Origin: Promethearchaeota archaeon
GTDB taxonomy: Archaea > Asgardarchaeota > Thorarchaeia > Thorarchaeales > Thorarchaeaceae
Assembly (NCBI GenBank): GCA_048939765.1
Contig: JBHLPF010000005.1
Coordinates: 1-64,000 of the forward strand
Length of the DNA: 64,000 nucleotides
Reading direction: 5' to 3'
The notes beneath the pieces were generated by a model that worked only from the letters and a program-made list of their open reading frames with translations, did no database searches and had not been told where the DNA came from. Shown here one piece after another: positions 4,129-46,916 of the stretch. Numbering within the stretch: position 1 is the first letter of the stretch; each line of letters starts with the position of its first letter. A program made the position numbers and the translations under genes.

Positions 4129-5520
4129 ATGAGAGTCTGTTTAATCGTTTACGACAACGATTCCTATATTCACTGGTTTCCTCAGGGCATTGCGTACCTC
4201 GCTTCTGCTTTGCGTAATGCTGGACATGAAATCACCATCTATAATCAGGATGTATATCATTTCCATGAATCTCACTTGACAGAGTATCTGAAAAAGAATC
4301 AATTTGATGTAATTGGTGTCGGTGTTATAGGAGGATACTATCAATATCGGAAACTTCTGAAAATATCTGCGGCCATTGCCTTAGTCCCAGACAGGCCAAA
4401 GTACATTATTGGTGGTCATGGACCCTCCCCTGAACCGGAATATTTCCTAAAGAAGACAGGAGCTGATGTTGTTGTAGTTGGTGAGGGTGAACTAAGCACT
4501 CCTCGGCTCCTTGAGGCATTTGAAAAAGGTGAGGACCTCAGCAATGTAAAAGGCATCGCTTTCCTAGATGACAAAGGTAAGTGCATAGTAACAGAACGAC
4601 AGCCTTTGATTGCAGATTTGGATTCAATTCCATTTCCTGCATATGACTTGTTCCCGATGGACTATTACACTCTTCTCCGAATGCCTCATATAAGGAATAG
4701 TGATCGGTGCCTGCCCATTTTGAGCTCTCGAGGCTGCCCTTATCGTTGTAACTTCTGTTATCGTATGGATGAAGGAATTCGATTGAGAAGTCCTGAAAAT
4801 GTTGTTGAAGAGATGCAACTCCTCAATGAGAAGTATCGGGTCAGTTATTTTGCATTCGCAGATGAGCTTACTATGGTTTCTCGAAAACGGATAACAGAGC
4901 TCTGTCAAGCATTTATCGAAGCAGATTTAGACATTCGATGGGATTGTAATGGCCGCCTCAATTTTGCACAACCGGATATTCTGGAATTGATGAGGAAAGC
5001 AGGCTGTGTGTTCATCAACTATGGAATTGAAAGCGTTGATGACGATTGCCTGAAAGCTATGAACAAAAATCTAACCGTCGAACAGATAACTAATGGAATT
5101 GAAAATACTCTAGCTGCTGGGATATCTCCTGGGTTTAATATCATCTGGGGTAATATCGGAGAGGATGAGAATACTCTGGAAAAAGGAGTGCAGTTTCTAT
5201 TGAAGTATGATGATCACTCTCAGTTGAGAACCATTCGACCCGTTACACCCTATCCTGGATCAGATTTGTATGAATATGCTATTGAGAATAGTTTGCTTAC
5301 TGATGTAGAAGATTTCTATGAAAACAAACATACCAACTCAGATCTTCTAGCTGTGAATTTCACTCCTCTGTCTGATGATGAGTTCTATCAGTACTTATTT
5401 GATGCCAACAGAAGGTTGCTAGAAAATTACTATGACCATTTGAAACAGAGAATGATTGAAACTGCAAGGAAACTATATTTGGAGCGAGATGAAACCTTCC
5501 GAGGCTTTAGAACATCTTGA
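4129..5520 (+). CDS. B12-binding radical SAM protein (class B methyltransferase-like)
   Basis: N-terminal cobalamin-binding domain (IIGGHGPS, VVVGEGE); SRGCPYRCNFC; GIES. Confidence 0.9.
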   Translation: MRVCLIVYDNDSYIHWFPQGIAYLASALRNAGHEITIYNQDVYHFHESHLTEYLKKNQFDVIGVGVIGGYYQYRKLLKISAAIALVPDRPKYIIGGHGPSPEPEYFLKKTGADVVVVGEGELSTPRLLEAFEKGEDLSNVKGIAFLDDKGKCIVTERQPLIADLDSIPFPAYDLFPMDYYTLLRMPHIRNSDRCLPILSSRGCPYRCNFCYRMDEGIRLRSPENVVEEMQLLNEKYRVSYFAFADELTMVSRKRITELCQAFIEADLDIRWDCNGRLNFAQPDILELMRKAGCVFINYGIESVDDDCLKAMNKNLTVEQITNGIENTLAAGISPGFNIIWGNIGEDENTLEKGVQFLLKYDDHSQLRTIRPVTPYPGSDLYEYAIENSLLTDVEDFYENKHTNSDLLAVNFTPLSDDEFYQYLFDANRRLLENYYDHLKQRMIETARKLYLERDETFRGFRTS

Positions 5521-5549
5521 ACTTGGTGCTCTACTTCTCATAAAGAAGA

Positions 5550-5576
5550 ATGACTGTACGTTTCTCGTACAGTCAT
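5550..5576. terminator. Perfect 11-bp inverted repeat between convergent genes
   Basis: ATGACTGTACG-tttct-CGTACAGTCAT. Confidence 0.55.
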
Positions 5577-5591
5577 CTTGGATAGACTTCA

Positions 5592-6014
5592 TTAAACATA
5601 TCTACATTTGATTTGAATGCTTGAGATGTCCAAGCCTTTTGGTGCGGATGCCCTACAGAAGACACGAACAACAACCTTCTCAGAAGCACTAACGTCAGTT
5701 AATCCAAGCGGATACGTGTACCCACCTTTTGCAGTACGAGGTGTACTATCATCTAGAAGCGTTTGGATTTGATTCCACGAAGCGGCATATACAATGATTC
5801 TTTCCACACAGTCGTTGGGATTAGCATCGAAAATATTGACCTTAATGTCTCCAACATGAAGCCTTGTTATGCCCTTACTTGTGGGTAAGGGAAGAATGAA
5901 CAATGCTTGGAAATCGGCATCAGAGGCAGACGTATAGAATGGTCCACCCATATACAATCGTGTATCAATATTCACATCTTCCAGAATGCACGGAACCCAA
6001 AATTCCTCAGTCAT
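5592..6014 (-). CDS. Hypothetical protein (beta-rich)
   Basis: 140-aa ORF with ATG start and a GAGG-type RBS; no recognisable motif. Confidence 0.6.
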   Translation of the reverse strand: MTEEFWVPCILEDVNIDTRLYMGGPFYTSASDADFQALFILPLPTSKGITRLHVGDIKVNIFDANPNDCVERIIVYAASWNQIQTLLDDSTPRTAKGGYTYPLGLTDVSASEKVVVRVFCRASAPKGLDISSIQIKCRYV

Positions 6015-6133
6015 TTTGAAACCTCGAAATAGGTTGCTGGGTTTTTACCTAATAAGACTAATTTGGATTTCTTTGGCTCCGGGTATTTCTGCATTGAAGC
6101 TCTGATATTCAAGCTTGAGCTAGTCTTTTGATT

Positions 6134-7054
6134 TCACCTACTCTCATCTGGCATCCAGCGAATGAAATCATAGCTTGGAGGTCGAATAACTCGTAGAGTT
6201 TCACTTAGAACTTCAATATGTGGTTTTTCTACATCGGTATGTAGCTTTTCGAATAGCTTCTCTCCATATTCAGGAGAGCCAAAAACGATTTCACCCTTCT
6301 TCTCCTGTTCAGAAAGCCACTCCTTTGCTACATCAACAATCTTTCGAGTGTCATCTTCCGTCAAATTGGGAATGAAAATTTCTCCACCCTCCATGAATTC
6401 AAAAGCTTCCATCAGGAATTTAATCGCAGATTCAAGTGGAAGAAAGTACCGAGTCATCTCGGGGTCAGTCACCAGAATCTTTCCGTTCTTCTTTAGCTGC
6501 TTCGGCCAAGCTTCAAAGACATTTCCTCTTGTTTGGATGACATTTGGAAATCTGGCGACACTAAGCTTTGTGGGACGAAGGCCACTGACATATTTCGCAG
6601 CTATGACTAACCGTTCACCAATGAGTTTTGTTGCACCCATCAAGCTCGTTGGATTCACTGCTTTGTCGGTGCTAATATAGAGAAATTTCTCAACTGAACC
6701 GGCGGCTATTGCTGCCCGGATTGTGTTCTGAGTACCAATGACATTGGTTTCCACAGCGTCGAATGGGTTGTACTCACACAATGCAACGTGTTTGTATGCA
6801 GCAGTGTGAAATACATGTTTCACACCATGCATTGCCTCTTCCACACGAGGATAGTCCCTAACACTCCCAAGGAAAAAGCGTACATTGGGATTGCCTTTTA
6901 GACGTTGTTGAAGTTGCCAAACGCCATATTCATCACTGTCAAAGACCCGAACAGTGTATTCTTTTTCCAGTGTTCTCAAAAGGTGTTCTACAAGAGCTGA
7001 GCCAATTGCGCCAGCCCCGCCAGTTACTAGAATCGCAGGTTTCCCTTTCCTCAT
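6134..7054 (-). CDS. NDP-GlcNAc 4,6-dehydratase (Polysacc_synt_2 / PglF-PseB-LegB type)
   Basis: TGGAGAIG, HTAAYKHV, STDKAVNPTSLMGATK. Confidence 0.88.
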   Translation of the reverse strand: MRKGKPAILVTGGAGAIGSALVEHLLRTLEKEYTVRVFDSDEYGVWQLQQRLKGNPNVRFFLGSVRDYPRVEEAMHGVKHVFHTAAYKHVALCEYNPFDAVETNVIGTQNTIRAAIAAGSVEKFLYISTDKAVNPTSLMGATKLIGERLVIAAKYVSGLRPTKLSVARFPNVIQTRGNVFEAWPKQLKKNGKILVTDPEMTRYFLPLESAIKFLMEAFEFMEGGEIFIPNLTEDDTRKIVDVAKEWLSEQEKKGEIVFGSPEYGEKLFEKLHTDVEKPHIEVLSETLRVIRPPSYDFIRWMPDESR

Positions 7055-27125: not shown

Positions 27126-28172
27126 ATGAAAGAAGCGGTGCTCTATTCCAGCCTTAAGGAAGGAGTCAGATGTGATCTATGCGCCCGGAGGTGTGTCATA
27201 CATGAGGGCGAGACCGGATTTTGTAGAGTAAGAAGTCTGAAGGAATCCAAGCTATACACATCCGTCTATGGGCTGATTGATGGAATGGCAGCTGATCCAA
27301 TAGAGAAGAAACCGCTGTTTCACTTTGCACCTGGTTCTAGAACGTTTTCTATTAGTACCTCTTCGTGTAATTTCAGATGTCAATTCTGCTTGAACTATCA
27401 TTCCTCACACCGTGAGAGTCCAGTAGGTCACCAAATGAGTCCTGAAGCAATTGTCACTCAGGCTGAACGAACAGACTGCGCTGGAATAACGTACACATAT
27501 ACTGAGCCCACAATCTTCATGGAGCTTGCACATGATACTGCAAAGATAGCAAACTCGAAGGGAATGTTCAACACATTTGTCACAAATGGCTACATGACAG
27601 AAGAGGCGGTAGATTACATAGCACCGTATCTTGATGCAGCATCTGTGAACCTCAAGGGGAGTGCCAACAAGGAGTTCATGCAACAATACATGGAAGTTCC
27701 TAAGCCTGAACCTATCTATAATTCAATGGCCCGTATGAGAGAGAAGGGCATCTTCATAGAAATCACAAATCTGATTATTCCCGAGATTGGCGATCATGAA
27801 GACGACACAAGAGCATTAGCAGAGTGGGTGGTGGATATTCTTGGCCCTAGAACTCCACTTCACATCATTGCATTCTCTCCCACTTTTAAGATTACGAACA
27901 TTCCCCGAACTCCAGCAAGAATGTTGGAGAAACACATCAAGATAGCAAAAGAGGTAGGATTGACTTTTGTATACTCTGGAAACATTGGTGGACATGACTA
28001 TGAGAATACCTACTGTCCAGAATGCGGCTTTAGGGCTGTAGAACGCTATGGAGTCTATTTGAAAAAGAACCATCTGAATGAACAGGGTCATTGTCCGAAA
28101 TGCAATGCAGACCTGAATATTCAGGGAGTGCAATGGATGGGCGAAGGTACTCCACGTTTGACATTTTTCTAG
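27126..28172 (+). CDS. amrS: AmmeMemoRadiSam system radical SAM enzyme
   Basis: CDLCARRC, DPIEKKPLFHF, CNFRCQFC, YTYTEP, TYCPECG. Confidence 0.9.
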   Translation: MKEAVLYSSLKEGVRCDLCARRCVIHEGETGFCRVRSLKESKLYTSVYGLIDGMAADPIEKKPLFHFAPGSRTFSISTSSCNFRCQFCLNYHSSHRESPVGHQMSPEAIVTQAERTDCAGITYTYTEPTIFMELAHDTAKIANSKGMFNTFVTNGYMTEEAVDYIAPYLDAASVNLKGSANKEFMQQYMEVPKPEPIYNSMARMREKGIFIEITNLIIPEIGDHEDDTRALAEWVVDILGPRTPLHIIAFSPTFKITNIPRTPARMLEKHIKIAKEVGLTFVYSGNIGGHDYENTYCPECGFRAVERYGVYLKKNHLNEQGHCPKCNADLNIQGVQWMGEGTPRLTFF

Positions 28173-28183
28173 GAGTCTTCGAA

Positions 28184-29077
28184 ATGCAGGTGATGAATGT
28201 TCTCTGGCGACCTACAGGTCAGGACACCTTCGAATCCGGCATCAGGGTTTGGCCAGATGAATCAGACACCCCAATATTCCTGGCCCTACCCTCAGAGTAC
28301 GATGTGGAGTGGACCATCCTAGGGCCCAAGCGCTGTATTGGTCATTTGGATTCACAAGGCACGCCGGTGAGATGCCCTGAGAACAGTCTAGTTCGCAGAG
28401 GTATGCGTCGATGTGGTCCGTGTTCCGCAATGGACGAAATAGACCAATGCATTCGTTGTGATGGTAGCTACTGTAATGCGAGTGAAGAGCGAAAGGAGCG
28501 GTGCTTTTCAAGCGAATATGCCGTCTATCTTGCCGTCTTCAATGATGGTACTCTAAAGATTGGTGTTTCTTCGAGGTCTAGGGTAGAGACCAGATGGGTT
28601 GAACAGGGTGCAGACTATGGTGGAGTGATTGGGATCATCGAAGGAGGTTTGAGGGCCCGTCAGATTGAGCACAAACTGGGTGCTAGATCTGCTGTAAAGA
28701 AACAGGTCAGAGCTGAACGCAAGGCTATGCACCTCTTGAAGCCTATTGGTGGGGAAATAGCTCAAGAAATCGCTCAAGGATTTCTTGACACTGTCAAGGA
28801 GAAAGAGATTGAATCTGAAATCGCACTTCAGGACTTATCAGACCACTATCATATCGATTCATTGAACGCAGAACCTCAGAGATGGAGGTCGGGAAGAACT
28901 CCGGTCGAGGAACTGCAGTTAGCAGGACGGGTTGTAGGCATGAAAGGGTCATTGCTTGTAACCCGAATTGGTTCAGCTTTCACAGTTGCAAATCTGTCAG
29001 AGCTAATCGGCTACTCCATAGATGATGCTTCTGAGGTGCGAATTACTTCTCAAACAGGCCTTCTTGATTTCTTATGA
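28184..29077 (+). CDS. DUF2797-like Cys-rich protein
   Basis: Cys clusters, VYLA..KIGVS..RWVEQGA, GRVVGMKG. Confidence 0.75.
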   Translation: MQVMNVLWRPTGQDTFESGIRVWPDESDTPIFLALPSEYDVEWTILGPKRCIGHLDSQGTPVRCPENSLVRRGMRRCGPCSAMDEIDQCIRCDGSYCNASEERKERCFSSEYAVYLAVFNDGTLKIGVSSRSRVETRWVEQGADYGGVIGIIEGGLRARQIEHKLGARSAVKKQVRAERKAMHLLKPIGGEIAQEIAQGFLDTVKEKEIESEIALQDLSDHYHIDSLNAEPQRWRSGRTPVEELQLAGRVVGMKGSLLVTRIGSAFTVANLSELIGYSIDDASEVRITSQTGLLDFL

Positions 29078-29123
29078 TGTTCAGATAAGTTATATCTGGT
29101 CAATTGTCATGCCAGTAATTACG

Positions 29124-29981
29124 ATGAGTGAGTCAAAAGACCAAGGTGCAAAGGTCCGCTATCTCTCCTTAGTGAGAAGAGAGGGTGGTGAGCCAATAAT
29201 AGGCATCCCCTATCGTGAGATGTCTGTGGACCCGGATTTGGTCGCGAGTTTTGTGTTAGCTATCATCATTTTTGAGAACCGGCAATTGAAAACGTTCACC
29301 AAAGAAGGCTATGTGGTTGTCATCGAAGAAGGGAAATATGTGGTCGGACTACTCATCATTGACAAAGTCGAGGACGACACTGAATACCGACGAGCTTTGA
29401 TCAGACTCATTGAGCAATTTGAATCCGAATACGAAGTGCATCTGCAGAACTGGAAGGGTGACATACGTCCTTTCAGGGAGTATGCACTTACTATTCTCGG
29501 GATTTTCCCGTACCGAAGGCTCGATTGGGACTTGGTACCTCGAATGGTCACGAAGTCCGAGGCAACTCCTGATCTTCAGGCGGCCATACCTTGGAGTGTT
29601 GGAGAAACTGATGAGAAATTGCAGCTTATTTCAGGCTACATCAATGGCAAGCGAACAATCGGTGAGATAGTTGATCAGTCAGAAATACCTGAGGCCGAGG
29701 CATTGGCGCTTTTGTCAATGCTTGATCGGTATAAATGGATCACAATGAGTAGACGTTTGGAGGAGAAGAGTGTACTAGTGAAGGTAATGGAGCCACCCCT
29801 TCTACTACGAGGAGTATATGGGGACCAATTAACGGCTCTTGTGGAACTTTGTGATGGTACTAGGACTCTTCTCGAAATCTGTGAGTTGCTGCCGTATAAT
29901 ATGGAAGCAGTCAAAACAGTAGCAAAGAACCTGATAGATGCGGGGGTGCTGGGTTACTATGATTTGGAATTGGCCAAATAG
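29124..29981 (+). CDS. Longin-domain protein with two C-terminal winged-helix domains (NPRL2/3-like architecture)
   Basis: DPDLVASFVLAI...FESEY..LQNWKGDIRPF (Asgard-type longin); YINGKRTIGEI and CDGTRTLLEI wHTHs. Confidence 0.7.
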   Translation: MSESKDQGAKVRYLSLVRREGGEPIIGIPYREMSVDPDLVASFVLAIIIFENRQLKTFTKEGYVVVIEEGKYVVGLLIIDKVEDDTEYRRALIRLIEQFESEYEVHLQNWKGDIRPFREYALTILGIFPYRRLDWDLVPRMVTKSEATPDLQAAIPWSVGETDEKLQLISGYINGKRTIGEIVDQSEIPEAEALALLSMLDRYKWITMSRRLEEKSVLVKVMEPPLLLRGVYGDQLTALVELCDGTRTLLEICELLPYNMEAVKTVAKNLIDAGVLGYYDLELAK

Positions 29982-30076
29982 CAACCGTACTCACTCACCA
30001 ACAATTGCCATCAATACAGCATCGCCGCTCCAAGATGACTCTACGAATGAATACTGGATAGGAGGCATGACCTGCT

Positions 30077-30907
30077 TTGTCCATTGATACAACAAAGGTC
30101 AGATACATCTCTCTTATCCGAATGGAAGGCGGAGAGTCAGTTCTCAACGTTCCCTACGCTGAGATGACCGTTGATCCGGACCTTATTGCAGGCTTTGTGA
30201 CGGCGGTGATCATCTTTGCCAAGACTCCAATTCGAACAATAAGAAAAGCTGCGTATGATATTCTAATTGAAGTTGGAGAAACTGTGTTGGTGCTTCTTGT
30301 CGTTGACCCAGTTCCGGATGAATCTCCATATCGTGAGAAGCTCAAGAAGATTCTACAGAATGTTGAATCAACGCATGGCAGGAAACTGAGGGATTTTGAG
30401 GGCGATGTCAGAATATTCAGGGATTTTGCTCTAAACATTATCAAAGAGTTTCCATACATGGAGATCGACCTTGATTTGGTGCCTATACGCAGGTCTGGAG
30501 GATCTCGAATAGGCTTTCGTGTTGGCGATGTTGATAAGAAGCTCGAACAGGTTGAAGCCTTCATCAATGGAAAACGCACTGTTGCAGAGATACTTGATTT
30601 GATTGGTCTGCCAGAAGAAGAGGTTCTCGCGGCTATCTCTGCTCTTGCCAAGTATAAATGGATAGGCTTCAAACGCAGGCTTACCGAGAATGATATTCTT
30701 GTACGCAATGACTGTCACGACGTAGATATTGACAAGCTTCGAATCCAATACGAAGCCAATGCAGTAGATGGTTTGATTGCTAGTTTTGATGGTGTGAAAT
30801 CGATTACCGAAGTCTTTCAATCATTGCAAAATGATCGCTATGATCGCAATGCACTTTGGTTTTTAATTCACAAGCTTGTAGAATACGGTTGCCTCACTCC
30901 TGCCTAA
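30077..30907 (+). CDS. Paralogous longin + double winged-helix protein
   Basis: VRYISLIR.EGGE, DPDLIAGFVTAV, FEGDVRIF, FINGKRTVAEI, FDGVKSITEV. Confidence 0.7.
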   Translation: MSIDTTKVRYISLIRMEGGESVLNVPYAEMTVDPDLIAGFVTAVIIFAKTPIRTIRKAAYDILIEVGETVLVLLVVDPVPDESPYREKLKKILQNVESTHGRKLRDFEGDVRIFRDFALNIIKEFPYMEIDLDLVPIRRSGGSRIGFRVGDVDKKLEQVEAFINGKRTVAEILDLIGLPEEEVLAAISALAKYKWIGFKRRLTENDILVRNDCHDVDIDKLRIQYEANAVDGLIASFDGVKSITEVFQSLQNDRYDRNALWFLIHKLVEYGCLTPA

Positions 30908-30913
30908 TGTGAG

Positions 30914-31738
30914 TCAAAGCGGAGTATCATTTCCGGGTATTCCAACAACATCGCTTCTACATTGCTGACAATGATGAAACTGTTCAATATAGGCGGAAGC
31001 AGTCTTTCTTGCCATTGCTATTTCATGCTCCGAAGGTGCTTGCATCTGTATCATATTGGCGTTTGGGACCAGTGGTACGATATTATGAAGAGTAGCTCCA
31101 GCTTTCGAGATGCTTCTAGCCAAGGAGCCAATGTCGCCCCCGTTTATGGATGGAATAAGAATTGAATTCACCTTTACACGAATGCCAACGCTACTTGCTC
31201 TGCAGATTCCATCCAATTGTTTCTCAATCACGCGTTCACCCATCTTCTCGCCCCGCATCAGATTCCCATCTACTATTGCCCACTCATAGATTCTCGCCGC
31301 AGAGTGAGGATTGACTGTGCTTATTGAAACTGACACTGTTTCAACATTGAGTCGCAGAAGGTTCGGAACATGTTCAGCTAGTAAAACTCCATTTGTGCTT
31401 ATGCAGAAGTGGATGGCAGGAAACGCCATTTTGACTCGCTGAAGAGTGCAGAGTGTTTCATCATTTGCCAATGGCTCTCCAGGGCCTGAGACAGCCACGA
31501 TCTTAAGGTTGGGTCTTTTCTCGATTTCCTCAACAGCTCTGCCTGCAGCATCTTCAGGTGCCATTAGGATTCGAGAAGTACCAGGCATGCTAGTATGGCA
31601 GGCAGAAGCGAGCGCTCTATCACAGAAAGCACATTTCACATTGCACACTCTTGCCACCGGTAGATGAATCCGCTCCCAGATATTGTGCCTGGATTGAGAC
31701 CAACACGGATGGAATTCTGAGGGATAGGCTTGCTGCAT
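30914..31738 (-). CDS. NifB-like radical SAM protein (no NifX domain)
   Basis: HPC, RIHLPVA..CNVKCAFC, SGPGEPLAN, CISTNG, CQQCRSD. Confidence 0.85.
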   Translation of the reverse strand: MQQAYPSEFHPCWSQSRHNIWERIHLPVARVCNVKCAFCDRALASACHTSMPGTSRILMAPEDAAGRAVEEIEKRPNLKIVAVSGPGEPLANDETLCTLQRVKMAFPAIHFCISTNGVLLAEHVPNLLRLNVETVSVSISTVNPHSAARIYEWAIVDGNLMRGEKMGERVIEKQLDGICRASSVGIRVKVNSILIPSINGGDIGSLARSISKAGATLHNIVPLVPNANMIQMQAPSEHEIAMARKTASAYIEQFHHCQQCRSDVVGIPGNDTPL

Positions 31739-31749
31739 TGCTTTGTCAC

Positions 31750-32142
31750 TCAGGTAAGGTCTCGAAGAATCTTGCTTGCCTCCCTCGCCGTGCGCTTCGC
31801 ATCATTGAAGATTAGCCCTAAACTCGCATTTTCAGGGGCAGTTACGGCAAGGAGGTATTCTGAGGGCATTGCAATTACGAGTGTAGAGCCTCGGCTTCCC
31901 TGGATTATTATGGATTTGAGATTCCCCTGACGTAGTTCCCGTACTGCTTGTTCTCCCGCGGAATGAATGCCTGCCACCATTGCAGCCACCGCAACCTCTT
32001 CAGTTCTTCCATGAAAATGGCTCACGAGCGGCAGTCCTTCCACAGAAAGGATGGCGGCACCCAGTATTGGCGAATTATTTGAGAGTTTCTTCAGAACCTC
32101 TTTGAGAATGCTAGGCATATCTTCCGCGACAGGCTTTGCCAA
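31750..32142 (-). CDS. Roadblock/LC7 (MglB/LAMTOR-like) protein
   Basis: AAILSVEGLPL, VAAMVA, IIIQGSRG, ASLGLIF. Confidence 0.88.
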   Translation of the reverse strand: MAKPVAEDMPSILKEVLKKLSNNSPILGAAILSVEGLPLVSHFHGRTEEVAVAAMVAGIHSAGEQAVRELRQGNLKSIIIQGSRGSTLVIAMPSEYLLAVTAPENASLGLIFNDAKRTAREASKILRDLT

Positions 32143-46520: not shown

Positions 46521-46916
46521 TCACGTCGAGAGCAAGTCGCCAACTTCTTTGGCATACTTCCTCATCTGAGTTGTAGCCAGACCCATGGATGTCAAGTCCT
46601 TGGCAGCACCCATGAGTAGAAACTCTCCGGCTTGCGAGAGAACTGCAAATCCCTTCGCTCCTCTGACCGTCACCTCGAAGAGGTCCCCCAAGTCCAGTTT
46701 CTCAGGGGATGCAGCCATTTCTCCTGTCATCAATAATGCGGCGCTTACAGCTGCCATGAGGTCCGGATCTGCTTCAGATTCTTCTGTGGCGAAGTACGCC
46801 AATTTGACACCTTGTTTGCTGACCACTGCAATTGCGTCAAGGTCTGCATAGTTAGTCAATCCCATCAGGAGTTCTACCAATTCTCTCTCTTTTTCTGGGT
46901 CGAGATGTTGCGACAT
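46521..46916 (-). CDS. Roadblock/LC7 protein
   Basis: IAVVSKQG, DLMAAVSAALL, VTVRGAKG, SMGLA. Confidence 0.85.
   Translation of the reverse strand: MSQHLDPEKERELVELLMGLTNYADLDAIAVVSKQGVKLAYFATEESEADPDLMAAVSAALLMTGEMAASPEKLDLGDLFEVTVRGAKGFAVLSQAGEFLLMGAAKDLTSMGLATTQMRKYAKEVGDLLST

Follow-up and report, generated by a model that had tools for sequence, protein, structure and literature searches.

Eukaryotic NPRL2 and NPRL3 (Npr2 and Npr3) are a paralogous pair with a common architecture, defined by an N-terminal longin domain and at least two winged helix-turn-helix (HTH) repeats (Levine et al. 2013, PMC3747258). Archaeal relatives have already been described: in Liu et al. (bioRxiv 10.1101/2020.10.19.343400; Nature 2021), an 'NPRL2-like' family among the Asgard clusters of orthologous genes (asCOGs) combines a longin domain with an NPRL2-type C-terminal domain and is present in most Thorarchaeota metagenome-assembled genomes (MAGs). 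The 'NPRL2-like longin domain' is a standard category of eukaryotic signature protein (ESP) in later work (PMC9834061). The present analysis concerns two adjacent genes, A and B, in a stretch of 64,000 nucleotides (the window: positions 1 to 64,000 of the forward strand of contig JBHLPF010000005.1, assembly GCA_048939765.1), which comes from an Asgard genome of the Thorarchaeota (3.37 Mb, 88.5% complete) and whose contig is referred to below as C55. A and B belong, as Thorarchaeota representatives, to this Asgard 'NPRL2-like' family, which is therefore not new. The parts of the Liu et al. main text considered here make no mention, however, of the tandem pair, the missing finger arginine, or the GTPase fusions and operons described below. 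The reading that we favour, with moderate confidence, is that A and B form an NPRL2-like longin pair serving as a docking or regulatory platform for a small GTPase.

Two features of the eukaryotic proteins are relevant to this comparison. The arginine finger of NPRL2 (human R78, yeast R84-N85) is located on a longin loop (PMC8534245, PMC12999518), and longins acting as GTPase-activating proteins (GAPs), such as FLCN, SMCR8, C9orf72 and NPRL2, carry a GP motif, i.e. a Gly-Pro at the end of the β1-β2 loop (PMC12290439). The locus relates to two wider questions, namely the origin of the longin-based GTPase regulators of eukaryotes (GATOR1, folliculin, C9orf72-SMCR8) and the role of the many longin, Roadblock and small-GTPase genes of Asgard archaea. 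A first-pass annotation, made from the DNA sequence, had proposed that A and B, together with a Roadblock gene facing them, represent a candidate proto-GATOR/Ragulator module.

Gene pair and predicted fold

Genes A and B and their predicted domains are arranged as follows:

29124..29981 (+): gene A, NPRL2/3-like, 285 aa; orthologs begin at the MSE/MTE position
29148..29513 (+): longin domain of gene A, residues 9-130, from AlphaFold2 (AF2) secondary structure and superposition on Sec22b
29598..29789 (+): winged helix 1 of gene A, residues 159-222, containing YINGKRTIGEI...YKWI
29790..29978 (+): winged helix 2 of gene A, residues 223-285, from the AF2 model (Pfam HTH_47 E 3e-4, below the cut-off)
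30077..30907 (+): gene B, paralog of gene A, 276 aa, TTG start
30092..30457 (+): longin domain of gene B, residues 6-127, from the AF2 model
30521..30904 (+): winged helices 1 and 2 of gene B, residues 149-276, from the AF2 model (wHTH-PRTase_assc E 9e-3, below the cut-off)

The open reading frame (ORF) of gene A opens at 29022 and offers alternative ATG starts at 29109 and 29124, while the TTG start of gene B lies 11 nt downstream of an AGGAGG at 30060-30065. The two proteins are paralogs over their full length (BLASTP: 39% identity over 275 columns, E 4e-58), and the six sequence motifs listed as common to both in the first-pass annotation all lie within this alignment.

AF2 models were computed from alignments of 30 (A) and 32 (B) sequences, and reached a predicted local distance difference test (pLDDT) score of 84 and a predicted template modelling (pTM) score of 0.78 for A, and of 89 and 0.81 for B. 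Both display the order β-β-α-β-β-β-α-α, which is that of longins, over approximately residues 10-128, followed by a short strand and then by two helix/hairpin winged-helix units. Superposition of the longin domain on Sec22b gave a VIA Z of 15.5 with a root-mean-square deviation (rmsd) of 2.2 Å over 119 residues, and VAMP7, Ykt6 and Fuzzy were nearly as good; the assignment of these modelled N-terminal domains to the longins is thus firm. Both models accordingly exhibit an N-terminal longin domain and two C-terminal winged HTH units, as in the definition of NPRL2/3, and the description of the genes as two adjacent longin plus double winged-helix paralogs holds.

Relationship to NPRL2 and NPRL3

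Searching the PDB with Foldseek, the top 9 matches of the gene A model and the top 12 of the gene B model were all Npr2, NPRL2 or NPRL3 chains of GATOR1/SEACIT (entries 8adl, 9h4q, 9o5a, 9o5d, 9v0j, 8fw5, 7t3a and 7t3b; E 2.5e-8 to 3e-5). A PDB sequence search identified chain 8adl_S as Npr2 and 8fw5_B as NPRL2, and the remaining top chains were tentatively assigned to NPRL2 or NPRL3 from their modelled length. These alignments span 320-380 columns, i.e. the whole protein, whereas generic single-domain longins (AP sigma, zeta-COP) enter the lists only from approximately 1e-4. NPRL2 ranks before NPRL3 for both A and B. The rmsd values to the GATOR1/SEACIT chains are high (9-15 Å), indicating that the domains are differently oriented; what matches is thus the architecture and the local structure rather than a rigid body.

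The same relationship was retrieved from sequence profiles. Against all PDB sequences, human NPRL2 was the best match of the family profile (E 1.6e-4); with a broader profile of 41 sequences it reached E 1.1e-4, and yeast Npr2 obtained 6.5-7.5e-3 across both profiles. Fused paralogs (see below) were left out of the broader profile, as with them (profile A4) the GTPase domain swamped the search. The alignment covers the region from the connecting strand to the first winged helix (NPRL2 residues 152-244), with the common pattern VP...D...L.YI[DN]G.R.I..I...Y, in which YINGKRTIGEI...YKWI of gene A is aligned with YIDGFRHIQKI...YYGV of NPRL2. The NPRL2 segment that the first-pass annotation had quoted agrees with the NPRL2 sequence in this alignment. 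Other searches gave no such signal: phmmer with A and B singly against PDB sequences returned nothing, and a profile of the longin domain alone retrieved coiled-coil noise from the PDB and no NPRL2. In searches of the whole genome, Pfam NPR3 returned nothing relevant, and Pfam NPR2 matched at a single place, located on a different contig and riddled with stop codons, which was discarded as irrelevant.

Taken together, the full-length structural matches and the profile match identify A and B as genuine, though remote, NPRL2/3-like proteins. We therefore consider their homology to the NPRL2-like family very probable, and the likeness pointed out in the first-pass annotation is retained at this level. 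Compared with NPRL2 and NPRL3, A and B are approximately 100-300 residues shorter and do not possess the eukaryotic inserts.

Existing annotations point to another role. A and B could be transcription regulators that bind DNA through the winged helices and respond to a ligand or partner sensed by the longin-like domain. Indeed, a Pfam scan of A and B yields sub-threshold winged-HTH matches only, and the homolog cluster of Baldrarchaeia is publicly labelled 'winged helix-turn-helix domain-containing protein' (A and B orthologs being recorded as 'hypothetical protein'). Likewise, a protein Atlas search returned only Asgard clusters without names and no structure, and Atlas neighbours carry TrmB or HTH_47. 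However, the winged helices are acidic, with isoelectric points (pI) of 5.0 (winged helix 1) and 4.3 (winged helix 2) for gene A, and of 5.1 and 4.8 for gene B, and the third helix of winged helix 1, EAEALALLSMLDRYKW, has a single basic residue ahead of the conserved YKW. These features argue against ordinary DNA binding, which seems unlikely from the sequence, and are in keeping with the C-terminal domains of NPRL2/3, the best structural and sequence matches, which mediate protein contacts (PMC8534245). Overall, transcription regulation is in our opinion a quite improbable function for the pair.

A duplication within Thorarchaeota

The distribution of the family was analysed in the window's own family of Thorarchaeota (f1), in a sister family of the same order (f2) and in other Asgard families (f8, f15, f19 and f30), f15 being assigned to Baldrarchaeia by the P0139 cluster and f19 to Lokiarchaeia by the P0156 cluster. 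At E ≤ 1e-5, matches to the family profile were obtained, many per genome, in 289 of the 301 Asgard genomes sampled; the profile also matched all 76 scored f1 genomes. Outside f1, many of the listed matches reach the longin part of the profile only, and strong full-length orthologs are concentrated in f1, orthologs of A and B being found across Thorarchaeota MAGs. From this analysis, two situations emerged:

In each f1 genome with coordinates listed (at least 50), A and B lie next to each other on the same strand at a distance of 36-150 nt, and their locus tags are adjacent in public MAGs. The gap narrows to 2 nt in a relative with a gene A of 70% identity. Conservation across f1 is comparable for the two genes (approx. 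70% identity each).

In f2, one full-length copy occupies the syntenic spot, in the order DUF2797 gene, single copy and convergent Roadblock gene. A single strong copy was likewise found in each of f8, f15 and f19.

A maximum-likelihood tree, which sampled archaeal sequences only and thus no eukaryotic NPRL2 or NPRL3, recovered an A clade and a B clade, each with 100% support in the Shimodaira-Hasegawa-like approximate likelihood ratio test (SH-aLRT). The two join a third Thorarchaeota clade (support 86), which includes a 207-aa copy from the same genome, and the single copy of f2 is sister to the A, B and third Thorarchaeota clades (support 92). The f15 copy groups with the P0139 cluster at near-zero branch lengths. 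The tree, the single-copy synteny of f2 and the fact that both proteins hit NPRL2 first indicate that A and B split inside Thorarchaeota, probably in parallel to the split of NPRL2 and NPRL3. We thus infer that the A/B duplication is parallel to, and not common with, the eukaryotic one: the earlier suggestion that the eukaryotic duplication or a parallel one exists in archaea would stand for a parallel, lineage-specific event and fall for a common one.

A tandem duplication in the Thorarchaeota lineage gave A and B, which were kept side by side and are probably transcribed together. The pair would most likely associate through the longin domains, as do NPRL2-NPRL3, Mon1-Ccz1, FLCN-FNIP and C9orf72-SMCR8; we regard the chances of an A-B heterodimer as about even. 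If such a pair forms, the winged helices would provide protein-protein contacts and not bind DNA.

Conversely, A and B could be subfunctionalized paralogs working separately, as homodimers or monomers, each with its own GTPase or partner, the tandem order being a remnant of the duplication. Single-copy homologs are sufficient in f2, f8, f15 and f19, a fused relative (paralog C, below) works as a single chain, and the genome encodes at least 10 further relatives of A and B, all of which is consistent with separate action. However, the adjacency of A and B wherever f1 coordinates are listed, with approximately 70% identity for each, is less easily reconciled with it, and eukaryotic longin GTPase regulators act as longin dimers (PMC3747258, PMC8534245). 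Separate action of the two proteins hence appears unlikely, though less so than a role in transcription.

One further arrangement was observed on L004 of the Thorarchaeota MAG BAJATHOR (5168-6792, +), where a 162-aa protein matching the longin part only lies just upstream of P0131, a B-like full-length homolog, with an 87-aa ORF showing a weak longin-part match between them.

Links of relatives to small GTPases

The evidence for a GTPase-related function comes from relatives of A and B, the most informative of which is encoded in the same genome:

C73:8231-10174 (-) (locus L018:4232-6175): paralog C, fused, 648 aa

Residues 1-120 of paralog C resemble a longin or Roadblock domain by eye only, with no Pfam match for the N-terminal 125 residues or the linker. 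Residues 122-254 constitute an Arf-like GTPase with WDFAGQ in switch II (Pfam Arf 1.3e-17; Gtr1_RagA only 2e-4), which is followed by a low-complexity linker and, at residues 369-647, by an A/B-like module (E 5e-70). When the GTPase domain of the fused paralogs was included in the profile, Arf6 and Arf1 became the best PDB sequences (approx. 1e-14), and NCBI names one fusion of the paralog C type 'ADP-ribosylation factor-like protein'. The fusion is kept across f1 (ORFs of 650-676 aa) and in f2 (a protein of 644 aa). It thereby names a likely client class, namely Arf-like GTPases with an N-terminal extension. Two stand-alone GTPases of the same genome (293 and 312 aa) have the N-terminal extension of paralog C, and are thus natural candidate clients of the A-B pair.

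Other members of the family have GTPase genes as neighbours. In f8 (G007, L027 7594-11358, -), five contiguous same-strand genes encode proteins of 351, 276, 180, 303 and 157 aa. Within this tight cluster, the 303-aa NPRL2-like gene lies directly downstream of the gene for the 276-aa GTPase, which is composed of an N-terminal extension and an Arf-like domain. The small proteins of the cluster have no Pfam match, and comparison of the family profile with the f8 neighbours by hhalign yielded a weak winged-helix match only, to the 351-aa protein. In f30 (G297, L029 7630-9731, +), a 347-aa NPRL2-like gene is followed by a Ras-like gene (176 aa) and then by a Ras/Rab gene (167 aa; Ras E 1.6e-54). 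Paralog I of the window's own genome (C46:16245-17891) is likewise followed by a GTPase gene.

In addition, a 580-aa protein encoded 1.9 kb from paralog C (C73:12038-13798, -; L018:8039-9778) ends in a divergent A/B-like module (E 1.4e-20), with no Pfam match over the N-terminal 320 residues.

The GTPases to which the A/B family is physically linked are thus Arf- or Ras-like, unlike the Rag GTPases associated with NPRL2 and NPRL3. In this respect the family resembles C9orf72-SMCR8, an Arf GAP (PMC12290439), as the GTPase fused in paralog C is likewise Arf-like. With the GP-motif Asgard longins, FLCN-FNIP and C9orf72-SMCR8 (PMC12290439), A and B have in common a longin proposed to act as a dimer on Arf or Rag GTPases. 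They differ from FLCN, SMCR8 and C9orf72 in having winged helices where those proteins have DENN lobes, and GGEP or GGES instead of GP in the loop; moreover, none of these three is found among the top 50 structural matches of A and B. MglB, whose platform fold is related, is among the weaker Foldseek matches of both proteins, and MglA/MglB-type pairs of bacteria and archaea, in which a GTPase and its Roadblock GAP are encoded together, have a counterpart in some lineages of the A/B family. Unlike MglB, A and B display the longin and not the Roadblock strand order, and carry two winged helices in addition.

From these genomic contexts, a GTPase-related function of A and B appears somewhat more likely than not. 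The A-B pair may act as a GAP, a guanine nucleotide exchange factor (GEF) or an adaptor platform for one of the many small GTPases of the genome, the best client candidates being the stand-alone proteins that combine the N-terminal extension of paralog C with an Arf-like GTPase (C8:11633-12568 and C64:68089-68967).

Several observations weigh against the GTPase platform. The GTPase context is that of paralogs and distant homologs, not of A and B themselves. Pfam Arf and Gtr1/RagA scans of the genome detected no small GTPase on contig C55, so that A and B themselves have no GTPase gene as a neighbour; the first-pass annotation had correctly reported none in the window. The Pfam NPR2 and NPR3 models, a comparison that it had put forward, have no match at A or B. 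Taken alone, the longin domain resembles NPRL2 no more closely than it does Sec22b, VAMP7 or Fuzzy. The rigid re-alignment with VIA is dominated by generic longins and is thus silent on the C-terminal half. At the β4-β5 turn, which we take to be the position of NPRL2 R78, A has EEGKY and B has EVGET, a variable segment with no arginine among 120 orthologs of each; in contrast to NPRL2, neither an arginine nor an R-N pair is thus present at the assumed finger loop. Finally, the strict GP motif is absent, the β1-β2 loop reading EGGEP in A and EGGES in B, with its second glycine (G22) as the sole nearly invariant loop glycine in the family.

Two other arginines, R31 and R53, are invariant in the 120 A orthologs only and are lacking in B, and both are located on loops other than the β4-β5 turn. 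Their restriction to A indicates that the A-B pair is asymmetric, as is NPRL2/NPRL3. R53, the arginine of ENRQ, lies in the α1-β3 loop of gene A, which by longin topology should be near the β1-β2 loop, and can be put forward, with low confidence, as a candidate catalytic residue. A GAP activity of the finger type nevertheless seems unlikely for A and B.

A more elaborate scheme can be drawn from these elements, and we regard it as rather improbable in its entirety. A-B would be a minimal archaeal longin heterodimer, acting as a GAP or GEF without the canonical NPRL2-type finger on an Arf-like GTPase with a longin-like N-terminal domain. Either R53 would be catalytic or, as for MglA with MglB, a residue of the GTPase itself; MglB does not require a finger arginine. 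The asymmetry would have evolved in parallel to that of NPRL2/NPRL3, an Arf-directed module would be the ancestor of the GATOR1 core, and the neighbouring Roadblock protein would join the pair as third component.

With stand-alone A and B, a natural fusion and candidate residues such as R53, the locus constitutes a compact and conserved test set. Soluble proteins of approximately 280 residues could reveal whether NPRL2-type modules regulated GTPases before eukaryotes, and whether these were Arf-like rather than Rag-like.

The Roadblock neighbour and the GATOR1/Ragulator question

The genes surrounding the pair are the following:

28091..29077 (+): DUF2797 gene (Pfam), directly upstream of gene A; syntenic with A or the single copy throughout the order
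30914..31738 (-): radical-SAM gene (Pfam), between gene B and the Roadblock gene; outside the A/B unit
31750..32142 (-): Roadblock/LC7 gene (Pfam Robl_LC7 E 3e-15), convergent with A and B

A DUF2797 gene also precedes the single-copy homolog of f2 and a homolog on metagenome contig L003. The 3' end of the Roadblock gene and the end of gene B are separated by 843 bp, in agreement with the converging gene some 850 bp away that the first-pass annotation had pointed out, and the gap is occupied by the radical-SAM gene. The latter is on the same strand as the Roadblock gene with a spacer of 11 nt, and the two are probably on one transcript.

This neighbourhood was part of the basis for viewing A, B and the convergent Roadblock protein as a true proto-GATOR1/Ragulator unit, with GAP activity on Rag-like GTPases anchored by Roadblock proteins. 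The adjacency is indeed kept in f1 and f2, and in f2, where the radical-SAM gene is absent from this position, the single NPRL2-like gene and the Roadblock gene are immediate neighbours. With approximately 14 Roadblock matches in a genome of 3.4 Mb, chance proximity is estimated at roughly 2%, and the genome also has several weak Gtr1/RagA Pfam matches. However, a region of 15 kb is collinear between f1 and f2 (transglutaminase, coiled-coil protein, radical-SAM, DUF2797, the A/B position, Roadblock and two more genes). The adjacency is therefore not independent evidence, as the whole region is conserved within the order. It is also lost outside the order: no Roadblock gene was recognizable beside the homologs in f8, f15, f19 and f30 (two small f8 neighbours being without match). 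Adjacency was for these two reasons rejected as proof of a Ragulator-like link.

The remaining evidence points in the same direction. The Roadblock gene is on the opposite strand and paired with the radical-SAM gene. Unlike NPRL2/NPRL3, A and B have no recognizable Iml1/DEPDC5 partner, no Pfam IML1 match being found at E ≤ 1 in this genome, which is 88.5% complete. To this are added the lack of a conserved arginine at the assumed finger position and of the GP motif, and the Arf- or Ras-like nature of the linked GTPases (Arf 1.3e-17 versus Gtr1_RagA 2e-4). A functional link between A/B and the Roadblock protein is hence doubtful on the available genomic comparisons, and a proto-GATOR1/Ragulator unit is very unlikely. 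The module proposed at the outset thus gives way to synteny at the level of the order, and the comparison with other Asgard genomes that it called for upholds the Roadblock adjacency in f1 and f2 and not in the four more distant families.

Two further Roadblock arrangements were observed. Within the window, a second Roadblock/LC7 gene (46521-46916, -; Pfam E 4e-8) is flanked on one side by a gene whose product shows a weak match to Laminin_G_3 and on the other by the gene for an unassigned 306-aa protein. Elsewhere in the genome, at C26:25265-29316, four Roadblock matches surround an Arf-type GTPase gene, in an arrangement resembling that of MglA/MglB.

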